A stretch of DNA of 16,857 nucleotides from Chthonomonadales bacterium (GTDB taxonomy: Bacteria; Armatimonadota; Chthonomonadetes; Chthonomonadales; Chthonomonadaceae), in assembly GCA_038217285.1 (NCBI GenBank), contig JBBQPO010000126.1:1-16857 (forward strand), in the 5' to 3' direction. Below the pieces are notes generated by a model. That model was not told the DNA's origin. It worked only from the letters and a program-made list of their open reading frames with translations, and searched no databases. The translations under genes were made by a program, and so were the position numbers. Every line of letters begins with the position of its first letter. Position 1 is the first letter of the stretch. Of this stretch, positions 1,960-11,258 are shown piece after piece.

Positions 1960-3303
1960 TCAGGGTTTGACGGCAGGGGTGACGTAGCCGAAGGCGGGGA
2001 GGACGAGGCGTTCGCCGTCCTGGGTCGTGAGGATCACCTGAGTCTGGAGGGCGCCGGGCGGCGTTTTCGGATTGAGGGTTACTTCCAGCAGCAGCATGGG
2101 AGGCAGCTTCTGCGGCGGCGCGGCGGGATCCTGTTTCGGGCGTTCAGGGATGCTCATCTTCGCGGTGACCCATACGGATGGAGAGGTCACCTTCAGATTT
2201 TTCAGCGCCTCTTCCGTCTTGCCAACGAGGGTGATGCGGCGGGTGGTGCTGTCGCCCTGGGTGACGGCTCCGAACACGACCGTGCCCGGTCGGGCCGAAA
2301 CCTTGCCGAAAACCTCGCCGGTCACCGGCGCCGTGAGCGCGCTGAGGAAGGTCGCTGCCATCTCGGCCGCTGCTTTCGTATTGCTTTTGTTGGCGACAGC
2401 GGCGCTCTTGAGCGGAACGAACGAGAGTGTGCCGCTCAGGACGCCCAGGCTCGCTTTCGGCGTCACCATAATGGTGTACCGTCGCAGGACCGTATGCCCG
2501 TCGCCTCCCGCAATCGGAGTATCGACCGGGGGAGTCGGACCGATGAGAATGCCGGGATTGGAGCTTACCAGTCGGACCCCACCGACTGTATTGATCAGAC
2601 GTTTGTCCAGCGTTACCGAGAGCGTCTGCGCCGGATTCTCGCCGGCGTTCACGCGCCCGAACTCTATGGCCGGGGGCGAGAAGGTGAGGACGCCTTCGAT
2701 GGTGGCGTCGAGACGGATGGCGAAGCTGGGCGCGGTCTCGCCCGGCATCATCACCCACACGAACTTTTTGATCATTCCCGGCGCCAGTTTGCTCGTATCG
2801 ATGGCCACTTTGATGCCGACCTGCGTGCCGGGCCGCAGCGTGTACTCGGCGGTCTCTTTCCCTGCCGCGATCAGCAGTGCGCTGGTGCAGCCGCAGGAGG
2901 ACTGTAGGCGATCAATCACGACCGGGATCTTGCCGTCGTTGCGCAGGGTAAAGGTGTGGATCAGAACCGGATGCAGAAAACGATCTATGCTCCCGAAGGC
3001 GTAGATCGCGCCGGCGGGCGGGGCGATCTTCACTCCTTTCTCCTCCACGAGATTGAGCAGGACGCCCTTGTCCGCACCAGCCGGTTTCTGGAGTTCAGGC
3101 GGAGCCTGGGCCTGCACAACAGGCGTAGCCTGGGCTTGCACACCCGGCGTAGCCTGCGCTTGTGCGCCCCACGACAGGGCCAACCCCAGCAGCGCCAGCC
3201 CCCCTGTCGCCTGTGTAAGGAGGCACCGTCCGACTGCGTGTGTGCGCTGCTGCCGCTCAGAAGCCTCCGGAGCCGGGAATTGCGCTTCTCTACTTCTTGT
3301 CAT
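1960..3303 (-). CDS. Exported DUF1573 (Ig-like) domain protein with about three beta-sandwich modules
   Basis: HTFTLRNDGKIPVVIDRLQSSCGCTSA is the DUF1573 signature. Repeated P-x-x-[IV]-x-FG-x-V modules, hydrophobic segment ending AQA, and a GGAGG RBS. Confidence 0.85.
   Translation of the reverse strand: MTRSREAQFPAPEASERQQRTHAVGRCLLTQATGGLALLGLALSWGAQAQATPGVQAQATPVVQAQAPPELQKPAGADKGVLLNLVEEKGVKIAPPAGAIYAFGSIDRFLHPVLIHTFTLRNDGKIPVVIDRLQSSCGCTSALLIAAGKETAEYTLRPGTQVGIKVAIDTSKLAPGMIKKFVWVMMPGETAPSFAIRLDATIEGVLTFSPPAIEFGRVNAGENPAQTLSVTLDKRLINTVGGVRLVSSNPGILIGPTPPVDTPIAGGDGHTVLRRYTIMVTPKASLGVLSGTLSFVPLKSAAVANKSNTKAAAEMAATFLSALTAPVTGEVFGKVSARPGTVVFGAVTQGDSTTRRITLVGKTEEALKNLKVTSPSVWVTAKMSIPERPKQDPAAPPQKLPPMLLLEVTLNPKTPPGALQTQVILTTQDGERLVLPAFGYVTPAVKP
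3103..3162 (-). repeat. 24-bp tandem repeat (about 2.5 copies) encoding QAQATPxV
   Basis: agcctgggcctgcacaacaggcgt / agcctgggcttgcacacccggcgt / agcctgcgcttg. Confidence 0.85.
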
Positions 3304-4006
3304 GTTTGCCTCCCTGGCCGGTCTTGGGCGCAGGTCTCTTCGTCAGGTTGGGTGCAGGGGGGGGCGGGAGCGTCGTGCGGCGCAGGCCGTTGATCGTTTT
3401 CGCGACAAGGAGCGCGGCCGCCGCTTTCTGTGGAGCGTCGTCGGCATGGCTATTGACATAGCGCAGCAGGCCGTTGTTATCGAGCACATAGAGGCGTGGG
3501 CAGGGCATCGCGTGATACAGCCGTGTCAGCTTGAAGTCGGCGTCGGGGAGCAGGACGGTCTGTTTCAAGTCGAGACCCGCTGCGGCGGCATACGCGCGCG
3601 CCGCCGCAGCATCCCCCATGAACACCACCAGTGTGATGGGCGGCTTGCTCGTCGGCGTTGAAGCGGCCTCCGTCTGCCCTGCCGCGTCCGTCAGCACGCC
3701 GCCGCGCTGCATCTGCGCCCACTCCGTGCCGAACGCATGGCACCAGCGGCAGCCGCAGGCGAAGCAGATCACGACCGGACGGCCCCGATATTCCGCAAGC
3801 GTGTGGCTCGTGCCGTCCACATCCGTCCGCGTAAAAGCAGGCGTCGTCCGGTTTTCCGGCAGGGCGGTATCGGAGGCTGCGCCGTTCGAAACGGTCAGGA
3901 ACAGACATAGCGCCGCCAGTCCGAGCCGCAGAGAGGCCAAAAAAGAGCGTAAGCGGGATGAGGACAGGGTTCTGTCCGTATTTCTAAATTGCGTCAGAAG
4001 CGGCAT
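3290..4006 (-). CDS. Exported redoxin (AhpC/TSA-TlpA-like thioredoxin fold) protein
   Basis: PAFTRTDVDGTSHTLAEYRGRPVVICFACGCRWC, LLPD and cis-Pro loop PRLYVLDNNGLLRY. N-terminal hydrophobic segment; GGAGA RBS before ATG 4006; overlaps the DUF1573 start by 14 bp. Confidence 0.8.
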   Translation of the reverse strand: MPLLTQFRNTDRTLSSSRLRSFLASLRLGLAALCLFLTVSNGAASDTALPENRTTPAFTRTDVDGTSHTLAEYRGRPVVICFACGCRWCHAFGTEWAQMQRGGVLTDAAGQTEAASTPTSKPPITLVVFMGDAAAARAYAAAAGLDLKQTVLLPDADFKLTRLYHAMPCPRLYVLDNNGLLRYVNSHADDAPQKAAAALLVAKTINGLRRTTLPPPPAPNLTKRPAPKTGQGGKHDKK

Positions 4007-4030
4007 CTTCGTTCTCCCAGGGGGTCTGTT

Positions 4031-4059
4031 ATTGTAGCCGCTGACAGCAAAATTTGCAA
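4031..4059 (-). promoter_or_regulatory. sigma70 promoter for the redoxin-DUF1573 operon
   Basis: TTGCAA-N17-TACAAT. Confidence 0.65.
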
Positions 4060-4138
4060 GGGGAGTCGGCCTACAAACCGTTCTGGAAGGAGCGAAACCT
4101 GCCCAAAGCCGTCCTGTGAAAAAAAGTTCAAACGGCTC

Positions 4139-4168
4139 TTGACAGAAGCGGCAGAGCGGGGATACAAT
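4139..4168 (+). promoter_or_regulatory. sigma70 promoter for the leader-porin-ABC operon
   Basis: TTGACA-N18-TACAAT, with an upstream A-tract at 4119-4125. Confidence 0.7.
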
Positions 4169-4182
4169 AGGCTCGTCACGCG

Positions 4183-4211
4183 CCCTTCTCTTCGCCGGAG
4201 ACGGGTTTTTT
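4183..4211 (+). terminator. Attenuator-like terminator just after the predicted transcription start
   Basis: CCCtTCTC-ttcgccg-GAGAcGGG stem (one mismatch) followed by TTTTTT. Confidence 0.45.
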
Positions 4212-4256
4212 GTTGTCTGCCTGTTCGGGCGGACGGCAACTTCTGGAGAGATCACG

Positions 4257-4343
4257 ATGAACATTGCCAGTTTTCAGCCTCCCTGCTGCCAAAAGGGGAG
4301 GCGTAAAAACCGCGCCGTGAAGGCCGTGCCCGCTTTGCGATAG
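4257..4343 (+). CDS. Putative 28-aa leader peptide MNIASFQPPCCQKGRRKNRAVKAVPALR
   Basis: GGAGAG RBS 6 nt before ATG. The 15-mer GGAGAGATCACGATG is identical to the initiation region of the gene at 15877. Confidence 0.5.
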   Translation: MNIASFQPPCCQKGRRKNRAVKAVPALR

Positions 4344-4590
4344 CCTCGTTTGCCCGCTGTCGCCTCGCCGCTCGCCGCCTTCTCGGAACTTCCGAAAGGT
4401 GCGCGAGTCGCGCGGCGAACCCCCGTTCTGCTTCGACAGATCGTTCCCGCCGCCTCCCTCGCCACTCCCATTCCCACCAAGAGACGCGACGAATCGTGTC
4501 GCCTGCTTAACCTCTCCCCTTAGGGAGGGGGGCCACTGCCTGCGCCTCGGCGCGGACGGAGCCGACTGCTTACCGAGGGAGAAAACAACG

Positions 4591-6012
4591 ATGACGACTC
4601 GAATTTCCTGGCCGCGCACAGGCCGAATAGTCCGTATGCTGAACAGTGTTGGTCTTCTGGCCTTGCTGACGGGCGGCGCAGCCTGCGCACAGAACGCGCC
4701 GACGCCGCAGGACAATGCGGCGAAGGCTAACCTGCAGCCGACCGCCGACAAAAAGGCGCTGCTACCCTATGAGCTTGGGTTGCAGGTGACCGTGATCGAT
4801 CAGAACCTGTTCAAGTTCCGCAGCCCCTACTCCGGCCCGAACAGTCTGCTGGGGCGCAATGAAAACGAGAAGTCCGATACCTACACCCTCTATGCCGGGG
4901 TGCGCCTGACACACGGCCTGGAGCTCTTCATCAACCCGGAGATGGCGCGCGGCAACGGCATCGGAGAGGCGCTTGGGCTGGCGGGCTTCACCAACGGCGA
5001 TGTGATCCGTAATCCCACGCTCGGCATGGAGCCCTATCTCGGACGCTACTTCGTCCGGTATACTCTGGCGACGGGCAAGGGCGAAGAGAAGATCACTCCC
5101 GGCGAAAATCAGATCGAAGGCATGCGCCCCACCCATCGTCTGGTCTTTACCGCCGGCAAGATCGGCGCCAACGATATCTTCGATGTCAGCTCCTACGCCA
5201 ACAGCACCCGTACGCAGTTTATGAACTGGTCGCTGCTCAACAACGCCGCCTACGACTACGCCGCCGACACGCGGGGCTATTCACGGGGCTACACGGTCGA
5301 ATGGGTGCATCCGGATTTCGCGGTGCGTCTCGGGCTGCTCGCCATGCCACTGGTCGCCAACGGCTCCGATCTCGCCGAGAACCTCCACCATGCGCGCGGC
5401 GAACAGATCGAGCTGGAGACACACCCGACCCTGCTCCGTCGCAAGGGGCCGATGATCGTGCGGCTGCTGGCCTACCGCAACATCGCCACGATGGGCAGTT
5501 ACCGCGAAACGTTGGCGCTGGCGCAAAAGAACGGCACGACGCCCGATATTTTCGCGACCCGCCGCCAGAACCGAACCAAATACGGCTTTGGCCTGAACTT
5601 CGAACAGCCGCTCGGAGACGATGGCCTGACCGGCGTATTCGGGCGCTACGGCTGGGACGACGGCGCGACGGAGAGCTTCGCCTATACGGAGGTGGATCGG
5701 ACCCTGACGCTGGGCGGGCAGCTCTCCGGCAAACGCTGGCATCGGCCCGACGACCGCCTGGCCCTGGCGCTTGTACAGAACGATATTGTCGGCGCACATA
5801 GAGACTATCTCGCGGCGGGCGGGCTCGGATTTCTGCTCGGAGACGGCAAACTCAACTACGGCTCCGAGCAGATCCTGGAGACCTACTACAGCTATCAGGT
5901 CGCCAAGCCGCTGGCGCTGGCGCTGGACTACCAGTTCATCAACAATCCCGGCTACAACCGCGATCGCGGCCCGGTTTCCGTGTTGTCCGTGCGCGCCCAT
6001 CTGGAGTTTTAG
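4591..6012 (+). CDS. Outer-membrane porin, OprB carbohydrate-porin superfamily, MnoP (Mn2+ porin)-like
   Basis: Signal peptide; F-x-SPYSGPNSL, NPE...G-x-G..LGLAGFTNG, YANSTRTQFMNW, AYDYAADTRGY, YQFINNPGYNRDRGPV; terminal Phe (HLEF); GAGGGAG RBS before ATG 4591. Confidence 0.85.
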   Translation: MTTRISWPRTGRIVRMLNSVGLLALLTGGAACAQNAPTPQDNAAKANLQPTADKKALLPYELGLQVTVIDQNLFKFRSPYSGPNSLLGRNENEKSDTYTLYAGVRLTHGLELFINPEMARGNGIGEALGLAGFTNGDVIRNPTLGMEPYLGRYFVRYTLATGKGEEKITPGENQIEGMRPTHRLVFTAGKIGANDIFDVSSYANSTRTQFMNWSLLNNAAYDYAADTRGYSRGYTVEWVHPDFAVRLGLLAMPLVANGSDLAENLHHARGEQIELETHPTLLRRKGPMIVRLLAYRNIATMGSYRETLALAQKNGTTPDIFATRRQNRTKYGFGLNFEQPLGDDGLTGVFGRYGWDDGATESFAYTEVDRTLTLGGQLSGKRWHRPDDRLALALVQNDIVGAHRDYLAAGGLGFLLGDGKLNYGSEQILETYYSYQVAKPLALALDYQFINNPGYNRDRGPVSVLSVRAHLEF

Positions 6013-6038
6013 ATCGCGCGGGAAAGGAGGGTGCGACG

Positions 6039-7772
6039 ATGCGACTGACCTATATGCCGCAGGCGGTGAAAAACGCGCACCGCATCGGCTGGCGCGATCT
6101 CGTGCTGTTCGTGGCCTTCTTCGGGCTGCTGTTCGGAGTGCTGCATCTGACGAAGGAGATGCGCGTCCATTTCGCGCCTTCCGTCACGATGCAGATAGAC
6201 CTGTCGCCGCGCGCGCTGCCCGGCTATGCGGCGCGCTCCCTGCTGCGCATGTTTCTGGCCTTCGGGGCGAGCCTGCTGTTTACGTTCGTCTACGGCTATA
6301 TCGCCGCCTACAACCTGCGGGCGCAGAAGATTCTGGTGCCGCTGCTCGACATCCTGCAGTCGGTTCCCGTGCTCGGATTCCTGTCGATCACGGTTACCGG
6401 GTTCATGGCGCTCTTTCCGGGTTCGCTGCTGGGTCTGGAGTGCGCGAGCATATTCGCCATCTTCACCGGCCAGGCGTGGAACATGACGTTCAGCTTTTAC
6501 CAGTCGCTGCGCACCATTCCCACGGAGCTGCGCGAGGCGACTACCATCTACCGGCTGAACTGGTGGCAGCGATTCGTCAAGCTGGAAGCGCCCTACAGCA
6601 TGATCGGGCTGGTCTGGAATGGGATGATGAGCTTCGGCGGGGGCTGGTTTTTTCTGGCCGCCTCGGAGGCGATCTCCGTGCTGGGCAACAACTTCAAGCT
6701 GCCCGGCATCGGCTCCTATATGGCGACCGCCGTGGAGAAGGGCGATACGAAAGCCGTCGCCTGGGCCATTCTCACGATGATCCTGGTCGTGGTGGTCGTG
6801 GACCAGTTGTTCTGGCGGCCGGTGGTGGCGTGGTCGCAGAAGTTTAAGTTCGAGCAGACCGATTCGTCCGCAGAGCCGACCTCCTTCGTGCTGGACGTCG
6901 TCCGAAAGTCGGCGCTGATGGACTGGCTCGAGAAGCGGGTGTTCGCCCGGATCGGCAAGGCGCTGGACACGCTGTTCGCCCGAACCGCCCGCGCCGACAG
7001 AGGTCCGCTTCTGCCGGCCGGCGTGTCGCAGATCGTGAACGGGGCCGTCACGGTAGCTCTGGGGGCGCTGGTTCTCTATGGCGCGGTGCGCAGCTTCAAC
7101 GTCGTTCGCAGCGAGATCACCCTCCTGAAGGCGTTCCATGTGCTCCTCCTCGGCCTGCTGACGCTGCTGCGCGTCGTGGTGATGGTGGTGGTGGCGACCG
7201 TGATCTGGACGCCTATCGGAGTGCGGATCGGATTTACCCCACGTCTCGCCCGGATCGCGCAGCCGCTGGTGCAGATCGGCGCGTCCTTCCCGGCGAACCT
7301 GATCTTCCCGGTCGCGGTGCTGATCTTTCTGCGCCTGCACGTCAACTTCGAGTGGGGCAGCATTCTGCTCATCGCGCTGGGCACCCAGTGGTATATTCTC
7401 TTCAATGTCATCGCGGGGGCCAGCGCGGTGCCCGGCGACCTGCGCGAGGCTGCACTGGTCTTCCGGCTGCGCGGCTGGACGCTCTGGAAGACGCTCATCC
7501 TGCCCGCCATCTTTCCGGCCTGGGTGACGGGGGCGTTGACCGCAGCCGGGGGAGCCTGGAACGCCAGCATCGTGGCGGAAGTGGCGTCGTGGGGCACGCA
7601 TAAGCTGACGGCGCACGGCCTCGGCGCGTACGTGGCGGACGCGACGGAGCGCGGCGACTGGCCCGCCATCATCCTGGGCATCGCGACGATGTCCGCGATC
7701 GTCGTCCTGCTGAATCGCCTCGTCTGGCGACCGCTCTACGCGCTGGCGGAAGGCCGCTACCGACTGGGGTAA
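6039..7772 (+). CDS. ABC transporter permease, NitT/TauT family, two fused TM modules
   Basis: SLLRM, LLDILQSVPVLGFL, GQAWNMTFSFYQSL..IPTELREA, second EAA loop VPGDLREAA, GGAWNASIVAE; AGGAGG RBS. Confidence 0.93.
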   Translation: MRLTYMPQAVKNAHRIGWRDLVLFVAFFGLLFGVLHLTKEMRVHFAPSVTMQIDLSPRALPGYAARSLLRMFLAFGASLLFTFVYGYIAAYNLRAQKILVPLLDILQSVPVLGFLSITVTGFMALFPGSLLGLECASIFAIFTGQAWNMTFSFYQSLRTIPTELREATTIYRLNWWQRFVKLEAPYSMIGLVWNGMMSFGGGWFFLAASEAISVLGNNFKLPGIGSYMATAVEKGDTKAVAWAILTMILVVVVVDQLFWRPVVAWSQKFKFEQTDSSAEPTSFVLDVVRKSALMDWLEKRVFARIGKALDTLFARTARADRGPLLPAGVSQIVNGAVTVALGALVLYGAVRSFNVVRSEITLLKAFHVLLLGLLTLLRVVVMVVVATVIWTPIGVRIGFTPRLARIAQPLVQIGASFPANLIFPVAVLIFLRLHVNFEWGSILLIALGTQWYILFNVIAGASAVPGDLREAALVFRLRGWTLWKTLILPAIFPAWVTGALTAAGGAWNASIVAEVASWGTHKLTAHGLGAYVADATERGDWPAIILGIATMSAIVVLLNRLVWRPLYALAEGRYRLG

Positions 7773-7777
7773 CTTAA

Positions 7778-7812
7778 CCCCGTTCCCTTCCCGACACGGG
7801 AAGGGAACGGGG
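7778..7812. repeat. Intercistronic 16-bp perfect inverted repeat (REP-like hairpin)
   Basis: CCCCGTTCCCTTCCCG-aca-CGGGAAGGGAACGGGG; no T-tail. Confidence 0.8.
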
Positions 7813-7838
7813 GTTGGGCACATGGAAGGAGATCTGTT

Positions 7839-9185
7839 ATGGCGACCGTAGTGCAGAGCACGAGCGCGCTGTTGAGCGCGGAGTCGATTATCAAATACTA
7901 TGGCGACGGCTCCAAACGGATCCTGGTGCTGAAGGACGTGAATCTGGCGATTCGAGAGGGCGAGATCATCGCGATTCTCGGGCCGTCCGGCTCCGGCAAG
8001 TCGTCGCTGCTGCGCATTCTAGCGGGGCTCTCGGCGGCTTCGGAGGGGACCGTGCGGTTTCAGGGCACGGTGCAGACCGGGCCGAACCCGCATGTCGCCA
8101 TCGTGTTCCAGACTTTCGCGCTGTTTCCCTGGCTCTCCGTCTATCAGAATGTCGAGGTCGGTCTGCTGAACTCCGATGTGCCGGAGATCCAGCGGCGGCG
8201 GCGCATTCTGGAAGCTATCGACGTGATCGGCCTCGACGGTTTTGAGGACGCCTATCCGAAGGAGCTCTCGGGCGGGATGCGGCAGCGTGTCGGGTTCGCG
8301 CGGGCGCTGGTCGTGCAGCCGGAGATCCTATTTATGGACGAGCCGTTCTCCGCGCTGGACGTCCTGACGGGTGAAAACCTCAAAAAGGAGCTGCTCTCGC
8401 TCTGGCGCTCGCGCAAAATCCCGACCAAAGCCATCGTGATGGTGACGCATAACATCGAAGAGGCCGTCGTGATGGGCGACCGACTGGTGGTCATGGGGGC
8501 GAACCCCGGCGTGGTGCGCGTCGATATGCCGGGGCTGCCGGTGGAGGAGCGCGGCAAGATGCACCCCGAACATGTCCGACTGGTGGACTACCTGTACGGC
8601 GTGATGACCAATCCCAAGGAGGCGGTCGCGCCGTTCGGAGCCACGGAGCCCCTCTCTCAGCCTGCCGCACAGCCGACACGCGCCTACCAGCTTCTTCCGC
8701 ACGTTCCGGTCGGGCAGGTGACCGGTCTGGTCGAGCGTCTGCATGCCGACGGGGATCGCGAGGACATCTACGCCCTGGGTCGCGAACTGCAGATGGAGGT
8801 GGACGATCTGTTGCCGCTAGTGCAGGCGATCGACATCCTGGACCTCGGCAATATCGAGGAGGGCGACGTCTATCTGACCGCAGCGGGAGTCCACTTCGCG
8901 GTGGCAGGCGTTCAGGAAGAGAAGGAGGTGTTCCGTGAGCAGGCCGTCGCGCACGTGCAGTTGATCAAGCAGATCCTGCGCCGCCTCGACGCGTCCGGCA
9001 ACGGTCGCCTTCGCCGGGAAGCCATCCTGCGGGAGCTCGCCTCTTGTTTTAGCGAGGACGAAGCCGAACGCCAACTCGACACCGCCATCGACTGGGGCCG
9101 CTACGCCGAACTCTTCGCCTACGACGACCAGGAAGGCGTTTTCTATCGGGAAGTGCCGGACTCGTCTCCCTCCTCCGGTGGCTGA
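7839..9185 (+). CDS. ABC ATP-binding protein, NitT/TauT family, with C-terminal AAA-associated domain
   Basis: Walker A GPSGSGKS, Q-loop VFQTFALFPW, LSGGMRQR, Walker B FMDEPFSALD, VTH switch; C-terminal IDWGRYAELFAYD. Confidence 0.95.
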   Translation: MATVVQSTSALLSAESIIKYYGDGSKRILVLKDVNLAIREGEIIAILGPSGSGKSSLLRILAGLSAASEGTVRFQGTVQTGPNPHVAIVFQTFALFPWLSVYQNVEVGLLNSDVPEIQRRRRILEAIDVIGLDGFEDAYPKELSGGMRQRVGFARALVVQPEILFMDEPFSALDVLTGENLKKELLSLWRSRKIPTKAIVMVTHNIEEAVVMGDRLVVMGANPGVVRVDMPGLPVEERGKMHPEHVRLVDYLYGVMTNPKEAVAPFGATEPLSQPAAQPTRAYQLLPHVPVGQVTGLVERLHADGDREDIYALGRELQMEVDDLLPLVQAIDILDLGNIEEGDVYLTAAGVHFAVAGVQEEKEVFREQAVAHVQLIKQILRRLDASGNGRLRREAILRELASCFSEDEAERQLDTAIDWGRYAELFAYDDQEGVFYREVPDSSPSSGG

Positions 9186-9447: not shown

Positions 9448-10665
9448 TCAGCGGGTCATGCGGCGATAAGCGATGAGCAGCAGCCCCCAGACCGGGGCAT
9501 AGACGACGATCCAGACGAGAACCTGAACCGGCAGGCGCAGGGCCATCAGGAAGGAGTGCGCGGCAGCCTGTCCGGTGCCGCTGACCTCTTCCATGAAGGG
9601 GCTTGCGGGTTTCGAGGCTACGGCAGGGACGTTCTTCGGTTTCTCGTCCAGTTCGACCGTGATTTCGGACAGCGCGCCGAGGCGGGTGAGCATCTTGAGC
9701 CGTGCCTGCGACTGCGCAGAGCGGATACGAAGCTGGCGCAGGGTCTCTTCGTCGCGGACTGTTTCGGAGTGTCGGCGGTGCACTTTCAGCTTCTCTTCGG
9801 TCGTGACGATGTCGGCGCGAAGAATGTGGCCGGTCTCCTGCTCGTCGCTCACCTTGTCGGTGATGTCTTCGCCGGTAAGTGTCTTGCCTTTAAGCAGCCC
9901 GAGCCGCGTGATCTGGCCCATGACAGTATCGAACTGATCTACCGGAACTTTGCAGGTGAGCGAGGCTGTGCAGGTATTGTCCTCGCCCGTCGTCAACTGG
10001 TTCTGCGCCACATAGCCTTTCGACTCTTTCACCAGACGCTCCACCGCTTCGCTCTGCTGCTCCGCGTTCGCGACCTCGACCGTCAGGCTCGCGTCTTTGT
10101 GTACCTGTCGCTCTGTCGGCAGGTCTTCTCCTATTAGAGTCTTAATTGCCTCGGTGCCGTTGACCTGATTTACATGAAGACGGGCGGAGTCGGCGATACG
10201 TGGCTTCGGCGTAGAAACCAACGTCTGTTCGTCGTAGTCCTGCGTGTAGGCCAGGGATGCCAGGCCTAGACCTATCTGTTTGGTGTTCGACGCTGCATTG
10301 GCGACCCTCGGGGGGGCGTTCTGGTAGCTGGATAGGGCAGGATAGAACATGAACCAGGCCAGGACCGCCGAGGCCGAGGCGCCCCAGATCAAGACGGGTC
10401 TTTCACGCCATTTCGGAATTCCGGGGGCCAGCTTGTCCGGAGCGGTGGTCGGAATGGAAGCTAGGATCCGTGTTCGGAGCACATCGCTCATCTCCAGGCT
10501 GTCGGCGGCTCGCATGCGGGTTCCCATCAGGCGCATCTCCTCGATCTCCTTACGGCAGGGTTCACAGCAGTTCAGGTGCAGGCGCATCGCGATACGGGCG
10601 GCGGGCGACAACTGGCCGTCCAGGTACGCTTTCAATTCGCTTCGCAGTTTCTCGCACTCCGTCAT
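9448..10665 (-). CDS. Anti-sigma factor: zf-HC2 domain, TM helix and DUF4349 domain
   Basis: CEKLRSELKAYLDGQL...HLNCCEPC (HxxxCxxC), a TM helix, and DUF4349-like ASLTVEV..GYV..ASLTCKVP..F..LG..EDITD..ITVEL followed by a C-terminal TM. ATGA overlap with the sigma stop. Confidence 0.85.
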   Translation of the reverse strand: MTECEKLRSELKAYLDGQLSPAARIAMRLHLNCCEPCRKEIEEMRLMGTRMRAADSLEMSDVLRTRILASIPTTAPDKLAPGIPKWRERPVLIWGASASAVLAWFMFYPALSSYQNAPPRVANAASNTKQIGLGLASLAYTQDYDEQTLVSTPKPRIADSARLHVNQVNGTEAIKTLIGEDLPTERQVHKDASLTVEVANAEQQSEAVERLVKESKGYVAQNQLTTGEDNTCTASLTCKVPVDQFDTVMGQITRLGLLKGKTLTGEDITDKVSDEQETGHILRADIVTTEEKLKVHRRHSETVRDEETLRQLRIRSAQSQARLKMLTRLGALSEITVELDEKPKNVPAVASKPASPFMEEVSGTGQAAAHSFLMALRLPVQVLVWIVVYAPVWGLLLIAYRRMTR

Positions 10666-11258
10666 CGTTTTGCCTCCTGCGGCATGGCCGCTACGGTCAC
10701 TTCCACACTGTCCCCCAGCACATAACCTTGCAGGCTGACCCGCAGGCGGCGGATCGCATTGGAGAGCCGCGACTTCACGGTGCCGACCGGAATATCCAGC
10801 ACCTTCGCGCACTCCCGGTAGGTCAGGCCGTGCAGCTCGCACAGCATCACGACATCGGCGTGGTGCGGGCCGAGGCCGTCGAGTGCGGTCTGCACCTGAT
10901 CGTTCAGCTCACCCTTGGCGGCGGCCTGCTGCGGATCGGAGCGCCAGTCCTGCGACTCGATCTCCTGCTCATCCAGCGGCACACTGTCGGTGCGGGACCG
11001 CTGGCAGTGGCGCAGGCAGTGGTTCACGGCGATGCGGTAGACCCAGGTTCCCAGGGCCGAGTCGCCCCGGAACTGCCCGATGCTGCGGTAGAGATCGCAG
11101 AAGATCTCCTGCGTCACATCCTCGGCGTCTGTCGGATTGGGCACGTAGCGGCGCACCAGGCGGTGGACACGGGTGCCATAAGCGTCCAGAAACTCTGCAA
11201 AGGCTTTGCGTTCGCCCTGCCGAATTCGACGCACCATCTGCATCTCGTTTTGCTGCAT
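10662..11258 (-). CDS. ECF RNA polymerase sigma-70 factor
   Basis: Region 2 DAEDVTQEIF..FRGDSALGTWVYRIAVNHC; region 4 LTYRECAKVLDIPVGTVKSRL. Confidence 0.95.
   Translation of the reverse strand: MQQNEMQMVRRIRQGERKAFAEFLDAYGTRVHRLVRRYVPNPTDAEDVTQEIFCDLYRSIGQFRGDSALGTWVYRIAVNHCLRHCQRSRTDSVPLDEQEIESQDWRSDPQQAAAKGELNDQVQTALDGLGPHHADVVMLCELHGLTYRECAKVLDIPVGTVKSRLSNAIRRLRVSLQGYVLGDSVEVTVAAMPQEAKR

Follow-up and report, generated by a model that had tools for sequence, protein, structure and literature searches.

A Mg2+ leader that appears to have lost its M-box aptamer and kept a conserved, possibly ribosome-controlled RNA switch in Chthonomonadaceae

The stretch of DNA analysed here, which we call the window, comprises 16,857 nucleotides (nt) of contig JBBQPO010000126.1 from a Chthonomonadales bacterium of the family Chthonomonadaceae, phylum Armatimonadota (assembly GCA_038217285.1). 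It carries an operon (4591-9185) that encodes an OprB-family porin, a fused double permease of the ATP-binding cassette (ABC) type and an ABC ATPase. A 584-nt gap separates the porin gene from a redoxin-type gene that runs divergently on the minus strand, and within this gap lies the subject of this work, a long leader (4139-4590) that precedes the porin gene. The original prediction, made from the sequence alone, had described this leader as a metal-responsive regulator of a class that could not be matched. We find a real, conserved and structured leader that is tied to Mg2+ through the M-box riboswitches of congeners, but the sensor that can be named is that known riboswitch and it has been deleted from the window. 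What remains is an orphan terminator followed by a conserved module (4245-4478) built around an upstream open reading frame (uORF) with its own Shine-Dalgarno (SD) sequence. The features are collected in Table 1.

Table 1. Predicted elements of the leader and neighbouring genes in the window; energies are folding energies, z is the z score.
Feature	Position	Strand	Description
Sigma-70-type promoter	4139-4168	+	TTGACA (4139-4144), 18-nt spacer, TACAAT (4163-4168); 11/12 matches
Deletion junction	4178-4182	+	single copy of the ACGCG microhomology; in relatives one copy lies on each side of the M-box region
Orphan intrinsic terminator of the lost M-box	4182-4211	+	9-bp interrupted hairpin 4182-4206, U6 4206-4211; -11.4 kcal/mol, z -1.65
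Lineage-specific stable hairpin	4212-4237	+	-17.7 kcal/mol, z -4.4; not conserved in G001
SD sequence of the uORF, GGAGAG	4245-4250	+	SD-like 4-mer or 5-mer 3-14 nt 5' of the ATG in 15/18 instances
Leader ORF (uORF)	4257-4343	+	28 codons, MNIASFQPPCCQKGRRKNRAVKAVPALR; Pro-Pro codons 4278-4283; stop TAG 4341-4343
H1 hairpin, GCCUCC(C)/(G)GGAGGC	4277-4302	+	5' arm formed by the Pro-Pro codons; -17.2 kcal/mol, z -3.5
Helix A	4315-4386	+	5' strand 4315-4344, 3' strand 4356-4386, apex loop 4345-4355; -32.4 kcal/mol
Helix B (H3)	4360-4418	+	59-nt interrupted hairpin; -40.1 kcal/mol, z -5.1
H4, small hairpin TCTG/CAGA	4427-4440	+	by eye in the alignment, differing sequences that each form a hairpin; weak support
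C-rich, G-poor tract	4444-4478	+	candidate Rho loading (rut) site; C 0.45, G 0.18-0.19 past the hairpin
Two hairpins, 4483-4500 and 4511-4532	4483-4532	+	joint z -2.6; shared with the closest relative only
OprB-family porin gene	4591-6012	+	first gene of the operon
Fused double ABC permease gene	6039-7772	+	second gene of the operon
ABC ATPase gene	7839-9185	+	third gene of the operon; C-terminal AAA_assoc_C domain
Redoxin-type gene	3290-4006	-	AhpC/TSA match; probable ATG near 4006
Promoter-like TTGCAA-17-TACAAT	4031-4059	-	9/12 matches; serves the divergent redoxin/AhpC-TSA-type gene

Several of the elements named by the original prediction are present much as it had drawn them: the near-consensus promoter about 420 nt upstream of the porin ATG, the terminator-like hairpin with its T6, the uORF, the C-rich tract and the two distal hairpins, as well as a hairpin at 4215-4234 that we see in a longer form. 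Transcription is predicted from the promoter sequence to start near 4175. Two promoter-like sites were found in 3800-4800, where 0.1 would be expected, and no further site of this kind was found on the plus strand of 4212-4590. The hairpin and U6 at 4182-4211 were not among the calls of a consensus terminator scan. They share 92% identity with the M-box terminator of the same-genus genome G003, and are homologous to the hairpin and U7 found 3' of the M-box in G001, G003a and G003b.

Alignment with G001, a genome of the same genus, gave the same promoter, then some 280 extra bases, then the same hairpin, U-run and downstream leader. DNA similarity starts exactly past the -10 box, and 299 nt lie between this box and the terminator arm in G001, versus 20 nt in the window. 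The congener leaders each carry a full M-box (Rfam RF00380; 129 bits in G001, 127.8 and 117.6 bits at two G003 loci), which lies between the same promoter and the same terminator as those of the window. Two copies of ACGCG stand 277 nt apart in G001 with the aptamer between them, and the window has one. Judged from these alignments, the leader is a descendant of an M-box Mg2+ leader from which a 277-nt deletion between the ACGCG repeats took the aptamer. The terminator, as the expression platform of the M-box, was kept and its antiterminator partner deleted, and as a result of the deletion the terminator now stands directly 3' of the promoter.

No Rfam family reached its gathering score anywhere in the window, and, in line with the original prediction, the conserved remainder of the leader matches none. 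At E values up to 10, a search of 3900-4700 returned only two chance-level matches, neither of them an M-box. The window's own genome (95% complete) contains no M-box, while 12 of the 42 genomes of the family do. With the RF00380 gathering score of 44 bits as the measure of membership, the window falls outside the M-box family, since it has no aptamer and carries only that family's terminator. A DNA similarity search gave matches within the genus only.

The deletion is not an assembly error, because the junction is bridged collinearly by contigs from runs of two other studies. Contig X2, from a strain about 95% identical to the window, spans 3950-4525 with 29 differences and no gaps, and contig X4 spans 4065-4236 with 6 differences; both match the promoter region 4138-4170. 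A further contig, X1, is a perfect match and possibly stems from the source sample. None of the X2 differences falls within 4111-4236, a segment of 126 nt in which rough arithmetic from 29 differences in 576 nt would predict about six.

The module downstream of the terminator has a constant order. An SD-like motif is followed by an ATG, 5-6 codons, the invariant GCCUCC that encodes x-Pro-Pro, a variable loop and GGAGGC, and then by a CCGUGA-like box, a TAG-containing hairpin, a long hairpin and a C-rich stretch. The same arrangement stands 3' of the M-box terminator in 12 of the 13 M-box loci of the family, the exception being G003a. At least 31 instances are known among the matches listed in our searches, from Armatimonadota (Chthonomonadaceae), Acidobacteriota and metagenomes, and many of the counts given below use a subset of 18 rows. 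In 31/31 instances there is an ATG uORF of 17-34 codons in frame with CCU-CCN; its Pro-Pro lies within codons 7-10, and at codons 8-9 in most. The uORF frame contains no stop in the 16 codons past the ATG in any of 18 instances, whereas the other two frames do in 9/18 and 14/18. The GCCUCC and GGAGGC segments form hairpin H1, in which all six pairs are 100% paired over 18 rows and five of the six are invariant, with a loop of variable length and sequence.

We consider it very improbable that the uORF encodes a functional micro-protein, such as a regulator of the transporter. Such a role would agree with the conserved N-terminal motif M-x3-S-x-[EQKR]-P-P, and the Mg2+ operons of enterobacteria do include small regulatory peptides. 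However, the length of the product would vary between 17 and 34 residues and its C-terminal half is unconserved: past the Pro-Pro the peptide sequence is not kept, and the conserved nucleotides are read in different frames among the instances, a pattern to be expected if the ORF is a sensor but not if its peptide has a function.

The 3' part of the module can fold in two ways. Helix A draws its 5' strand from inside the uORF, as strand R1 (CCGTGAAGGC, 4315-4324) and the arm of hairpin H2 (GCGATAGC, 4337-4344); R1 pairs with 4377-4386 (GCCTTCTCGG) and GCGATAGC with GCTGTCGC (4356-4363). Helix B is closed at its base by TCGCC (4360-4364) with GGCGA (4414-4418) and ends in a CCTTcTCGGAA/TTCCGAAAGG stem at its tip. 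As both need 4360-4386, the two helices are mutually exclusive. The original prediction had placed a multi-stem junction in this region, and of that proposal the tip stem stands as part of the 4360-4418 hairpin, but the closure by TCGCCG at 4372-4377 does not and the GCGCG/CGCGC stem lies outside the conserved fold. An equivalent of helix B was found in all 31 instances, 44-70 nt long, with energies of -20 to -42 kcal/mol and a start 47-71 nt past H1.

Column counts were made on alignment A7, fitted with a covariance model to H1 and the outer part of hairpin B only. The R1:R2 pairs of helix A showed changes on both sides in 7/9 (73.5% of cells paired), the H2 pairs in 4/8 (79% paired) and the outer 14 pairs of hairpin B in 8/14 (90% paired), while sliding the partner by 1-3 columns left about 40% paired. 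MAFFT alone misaligned the variable tip of hairpin B, and A7 fails for four distant rows, contains one spurious palindromic row and misses L072. Because of these weaknesses, alignment-free permutation tests were added, in which each lineage's R1 was paired against every lineage's hairpin arm over 20000 permutations. With 12 lineages the cognate R1 x R2 energy was -219.7 kcal/mol versus -157.3 +/- 11.5 for permuted pairs, a value reached in 0/20000 permutations, and with 27 lineages z was -9.7 (again 0/20000). The arms of hairpin B gave 0/20000 with 12 lineages and z -11.4, 0/20000, with 27. In contrast, the negative control of R1 against the 3' arm of hairpin B gave 2981/20000 with 12 lineages and z -0.3 with 27. 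These counts are not exact probabilities because the lineages are kin, although kinship works against the test. An earlier comparison of cognate with non-cognate pairs, using a 34-nt R1 window in close relatives, was too noisy. Compared in this way across related leaders, as the original prediction had proposed, helices A and B are both supported by covariation.

We think it somewhat better than an even bet that the leader is a former two-stage Mg2+ leader that has lost its aptamer and retains an intact, translation-coupled attenuator of the mgtL kind. The ancestral order would have been promoter, M-box aptamer, intrinsic terminator and leader-peptide RNA switch. In the window, the promoter would read straight into the orphan terminator, where a fixed share of transcripts is probably stopped. 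The uORF switch would then be the only conditional element left, since the M-box stage is gone and the orphan terminator would act as a fixed brake. In the second stage, a ribosome that starts at the SD and ATG (4245-4259) would meet Pro-Pro (codons 8-9) inside the GCCUCC/GGAGGC hairpin. If it reaches the stop codon it would cover the 5' strand of helix A, and 4360-4386 would fold into hairpin B; the C-rich tract would then be single-stranded, Rho would load and transcription would end short of the porin gene. If the ribosome instead stalls at Pro-Pro, because Mg2+ is scarce or proline is decoded slowly, or if the ORF is left untranslated, R1 would be free to form helix A. Hairpin B would then be prevented, its freed G-rich 3' arm could cover the C-rich tract, and transcription would continue. 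Ample Mg2+ and smooth translation would thus lead to Rho termination and stalling to read-through, a direction that we take by analogy with mgtA/mgtL and corA/corL; the translation and stalling are themselves predicted.

The geometry of the module is consistent with this scheme. R1 starts 24-40 nt past the second Pro codon, so that a stalled ribosome would leave it free, and the uORF terminates within R1 or no more than 17 nt downstream of it. The tract after H3 is C-rich and G-poor in 15/16 instances (C 0.24-0.47, G 0.12-0.25), its composition being conserved and its sequence not. The genome encodes both Rho (618.7 bits) and the elongation factor EF-P (240.5 bits). Between the two alternatives of the original prediction, riboswitch or attenuator, the remainder of the leader looks like a uORF-controlled RNA switch and not like a ligand-binding riboswitch.

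Several observations weigh against this reading, and they bear on each of its steps. For the uORF, three of 18 instances have no SD-like motif, and conservation is stronger in the nucleotides than in the amino acids: the Ser codon is AGU in 17/18, the GGAGGC arm is read as Gly-Gly or Arg-Arg depending on the instance, and CCGUGA supplies a stop in some instances and Val-Lys in others. Conservation at this level leaves room for a mechanism of RNA alone, in which the module is a ligand- or ion-sensing riboswitch, with H1 and helices A and B as aptamer and platform and the ORF incidental. Nucleotides kept irrespective of frame, an AGU codon without synonymous change, an H1 invariant across two phyla and a position behind a known riboswitch, reminiscent of tandem riboswitch arrangements, would all fit. 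We nevertheless regard such a riboswitch as unlikely, since an in-frame ATG stands at a fixed distance in 31/31 instances with an SD-like motif in 15/18, the uORF frame is open in 18/18 where the other frames have stops, and the uORF stop always falls in or just past the 5' strand of helix A. Moreover, we saw no conserved multi-helix junction or pocket-forming loop in the module, and the loop of H1 is variable.

The output is the second point of doubt, for it is base composition that points to Rho. Specific pairing of the 3' arm of hairpin B with the C-rich tract was tried and came out no better than with shuffled tracts (z about 0). Constrained folding gave a mean unpaired probability of the tract of 0.58 versus 0.48, the gain in state B being small (0.01-0.20). 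A U-run follows hairpin B in one of 18 instances (G055) and none follows 4418 in the window, and an intrinsic terminator is therefore not the general output. A translation-coupled switch might instead act through mRNA stability or through translation initiation of the next gene. In G044 the gene begins directly past the module, where a CUCCCC...GGGGGA pairing could mask its SD; the pe20 Mbox of Mycobacterium tuberculosis is described as using a translational platform (PMC12810186); and the pairing of the C-rich tract is not sequence-specific. Against this, the module ends about 170 nt before the next start in the window and several hundred nt before it in the Nramp loci, distances too great for direct masking of the ribosome-binding site (RBS) to be probable, and the C-rich, G-poor tract is there after the module in 15/16 instances.

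The region next to the RBS also tells against such an output, being neither conserved nor structured above chance. The original prediction had proposed competing pairings there, and these did not hold up: folding of 4536-4600 gave z -0.45, 62 of 200 shuffled sequences folded as well, G001 has a 31-nt insertion in this region, and the contigs of close relatives diverge at 4526-4573. On these grounds an output other than Rho seems improbable to us. Further upstream, G001 has hairpins at the same two places as the pair at 4483-4532, with different inner sequence, and column counts on A7 found only 44-57% of H4 paired. In the window, the segment CGCCUCCC (4451-4458) of the C-rich tract perfectly complements the invariant 3' arm of H1 (GGGGAGGCG, 4295-4303). 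As a general pairing of the GGAGGC arm with CCUCC in the tract, a perfect 8-mer in the window, this was not retained: CCUCC is about as frequent as composition predicts in a rough count, and the match may be chance.

Finally, the orphan terminator may stop most transcripts, which would leave the module with little weight in this genome. No RNA run was among the public sequencing runs listed as matching the stretch, and where transcription starts and ends, and that the uORF is translated, are predictions. The extreme case would be a decaying relic, in which the orphan terminator silences the operon or fixes it at a low level and the module is inert. A leader that has lost aptamer and antiterminator and kept the terminator, in a genome free of M-boxes and with no second promoter-like site before the porin gene, could be seen in this light, and a congener, G002 (98% complete), has neither M-box nor module nor an ortholog of the permease. 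Yet the aptamer-less allele persists in the strain of contig X2, some 5% diverged, with the unchanged 126-nt segment described above. The uORF, H1 and helices A and B are undamaged, the X2 differences within the module lying mostly at unpaired or mismatch positions (4292, 4336, 4369, 4383), and M-box-less leaders with the module occur elsewhere too. Decay of the whole leader is thus an explanation to which we give little credence, and we continue with the translation-coupled attenuator.

The distribution of the module was assessed with a covariance model of its 5' half (model R1, a search model distinct from strand R1). Of the 68 genomes of the order it matched 15, which belong to a single family; the other two families gave 0/26, and the class-level search covered the same 68 genomes. 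Among 151 sampled genomes of the phylum four matched, one of them from another class (G096), where the module lies after a divergent M-box (42.9 bits) and before a CorA gene. Scanning one genome per species for the motif produced 94 stretches; among the 80 of these that were listed, ten matched the model at E < 1e-4, eight of Chthonomonadaceae type and two from Acidobacteriota. Of the latter two, one stands before mgtE without an M-box (L048), and the other is preceded by a 119-bit M-box and followed by an Nramp-like gene. In 150 more genomes of the order of the Pyrinomonadaceae match, the model, tuned to Chthonomonadaceae and run with strict filters, returned the known match only. In metagenome contigs the motif scan gave at least 119 matches with 80 loci listed, and at least 17 of these 80 matched at E <= 0.001; four were score-identical to genomes already seen and 13 were new, ten of them with an M-box of 119-143 bits directly upstream. 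A further candidate, L074 (19 bits), was dropped because it looks like an ordinary palindromic terminator.

Of the 31 instances, 23 have an M-box that reaches the gathering score directly 5' of the module, and a further one has an M-box just short of it (42.9 bits). Six have none in the DNA covered, namely the window, G022, G019, L048, L173 and L189 (the last with only 114 nt upstream), and one instance was left out of this tally because its contig ends. Downstream genes were typed by Pfam on the first sizeable ORF 3' of the module. Nramp was found in G048, G009, G055, G022, L225, L217, L228 and L194, with a weak match in L151; MgtC in G004, L191 and L227; the OprB porin in the window, G013 and G044, and by alignment in G001; and CorA in G096, MgtE (MgtE_N) in L048 and AdoMet decarboxylase (AdoMet_dc) in G019. 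The tally is without assignment for G003b, L179, L185, L189, L173, L153, L210 and L072. Nramp-related proteins behind M-boxes are described as known Mg2+ importers (PMC4072509). The module is apparently an undescribed mini-gene and RNA switch that precedes magnesium-uptake genes in two phyla.

Some of these loci have features of their own. In the Nramp loci L014, L023, L024 and L025, some 500 nt separate the module from the Nramp gene and contain a second small ORF with a common start (MLKM.W, MLRM.W or MLRL.W), which may be an additional conserved leader ORF. In G022 (L039), the place of the M-box 5' of the module is taken by a small gene that looks by eye like a metal repressor of the CsoR/RcnR type; its promoter carries a perfect palindrome (GGTATCCCCCC/GGGGGGATACC), and the gene has a terminator-like hairpin of its own. 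In G019 (L041), where AdoMet decarboxylase, an enzyme of polyamine synthesis, is encoded downstream, promoter and module are separated by about 200 nt that include a terminator-like hairpin and occupy the position of the M-box, and an Rfam search of this segment returned nothing.

The nearest relatives of the leader by descent are the M-box leaders (ykoK/mgtE type). Congeners share its promoter and terminator around M-boxes of 118-129 bits, and in two of them the permease lies behind an M-box, but the window has no aptamer and the conserved downstream module lies outside the M-box model. In logic, the module resembles mgtA/mgtL, corA/corL and mgtCBR (with mgtM and mgtP), where a short proline-containing uORF overlaps mutually exclusive stem-loops before Mg2+ transport genes. 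For mgtL and corL, Mg2+ is described as stimulating translation of the uORF, with the effect that the leader is rearranged and a rut site exposed (PMC12360218; PMC3641672), and the C-rich tract 3' of our module is a candidate for such a site. Unlike these systems, the module occurs in other phyla, with no sequence relation detected (no Rfam family matched), and it holds its Pro-Pro inside an invariant hairpin that resembles an SD/anti-SD pairing, usually in series with an M-box and terminator.

The nearest architectural precedent, compared by description only, combines an M-box with a conserved, proline-containing uORF in mycobacteria. In the M. tuberculosis pe20 and rv1535 leaders the Mbox is reported to be followed by an SD-preceded, conserved small uORF2 (Rv1805A) with a proline near position 7; premature termination in leaders of the pe20 type is reported to be Rho-dependent, and a homologue of the uORF to exist without an M-box (PMC12810186). 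The same account describes the pe20 Mbox as having no intrinsic terminator but an SD/anti-SD translational platform, and calls the peptide mycobacteria-specific (PMC12810186). In contrast, the congener M-box here has a canonical hairpin and U-run. No mycobacterial record was among the 80 loci listed by the motif scan. The module also shares with the trp, his and pheST attenuators the principle that the position of the ribosome selects one of two overlapping helices (2:3 versus 3:4), but hairpin B is not an intrinsic terminator (a U-run in G055 alone among 18) and the codons are Pro-Pro and not those of a regulated amino acid. In the literature we found no description of the module in Armatimonadota or Acidobacteria; as found there, Mg2+ sensing by proline leader peptides has been shown experimentally in enterobacteria only, and the combination of M-box and uORF in mycobacteria only.

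The original prediction had counted the genes behind the leader among Mg/Mn uptake genes, which their families do not bear out. NCBIfam places the transporter in the nitrate/sulfonate/taurine-like (NitT/TauT) group with no equivalog model at cut-off, and its Mg2+ link is made through the M-boxes of relatives alone. Orthologs of the permease occur in two genomes of the same genus, G001 (89% identity) and G003 (91%). In G001 the permease lies behind an M-box, the module and a porin, and in G003 behind an M-box alone, without porin or module. A single transporter thus has three types of leader in one genus: M-box alone (G003a), M-box, module and porin (G001), and module and porin (window). The operon contains no binding-protein gene. 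From this association, the OprB porin, the fused permease and the AAA_assoc_C ATPase may together be an unrecognised Mg2+-linked uptake system.

Elsewhere in the window, the N-terminus of the divergent redoxin/AhpC-TSA-type product resembles a signal peptide. At 9448-10842 on the minus strand lies a gene in which an anti-sigma-type zinc finger (zf-HC2) is fused to DUF4349, and beyond it are HEAT-repeat and T2SS-G-like (prepilin-type) genes; these are unrelated to the leader.

More tentatively, and with rather less than an even chance in our estimate, Armatimonadota and Acidobacteriota would possess, in the Pro-Pro uORF module, a Mg2+ sensor of independent origin that works through the ribosome. 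Normally placed in series with an M-box, it would add a second reading of Mg2+, by the translating ribosome, to a first one by RNA; as the window and five other M-box-less leaders suggest, it would also be able to act alone. This would imply that the porin and the NitT/TauT-like ABC system without a binding protein form a hitherto unrecognised route of Mg2+ acquisition or of relief from Mg2+ stress. For annotation, the locus is a reminder that a structured leader which seems novel can be what is left of a known riboswitch. The three leaders of the one transporter (G003a, G001 and the window) form a natural allele series, and the genes behind the module point to the OprB porin, the ABC system and AdoMet decarboxylase as new candidates for a link to Mg2+. 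The module would be a third, unrelated sequence family with leader-peptide Mg2+ logic, found in two phyla before at least six kinds of Mg2+-related genes, and it offers a test of whether Mg2+ sensing by leader peptides may be a general, convergent solution.

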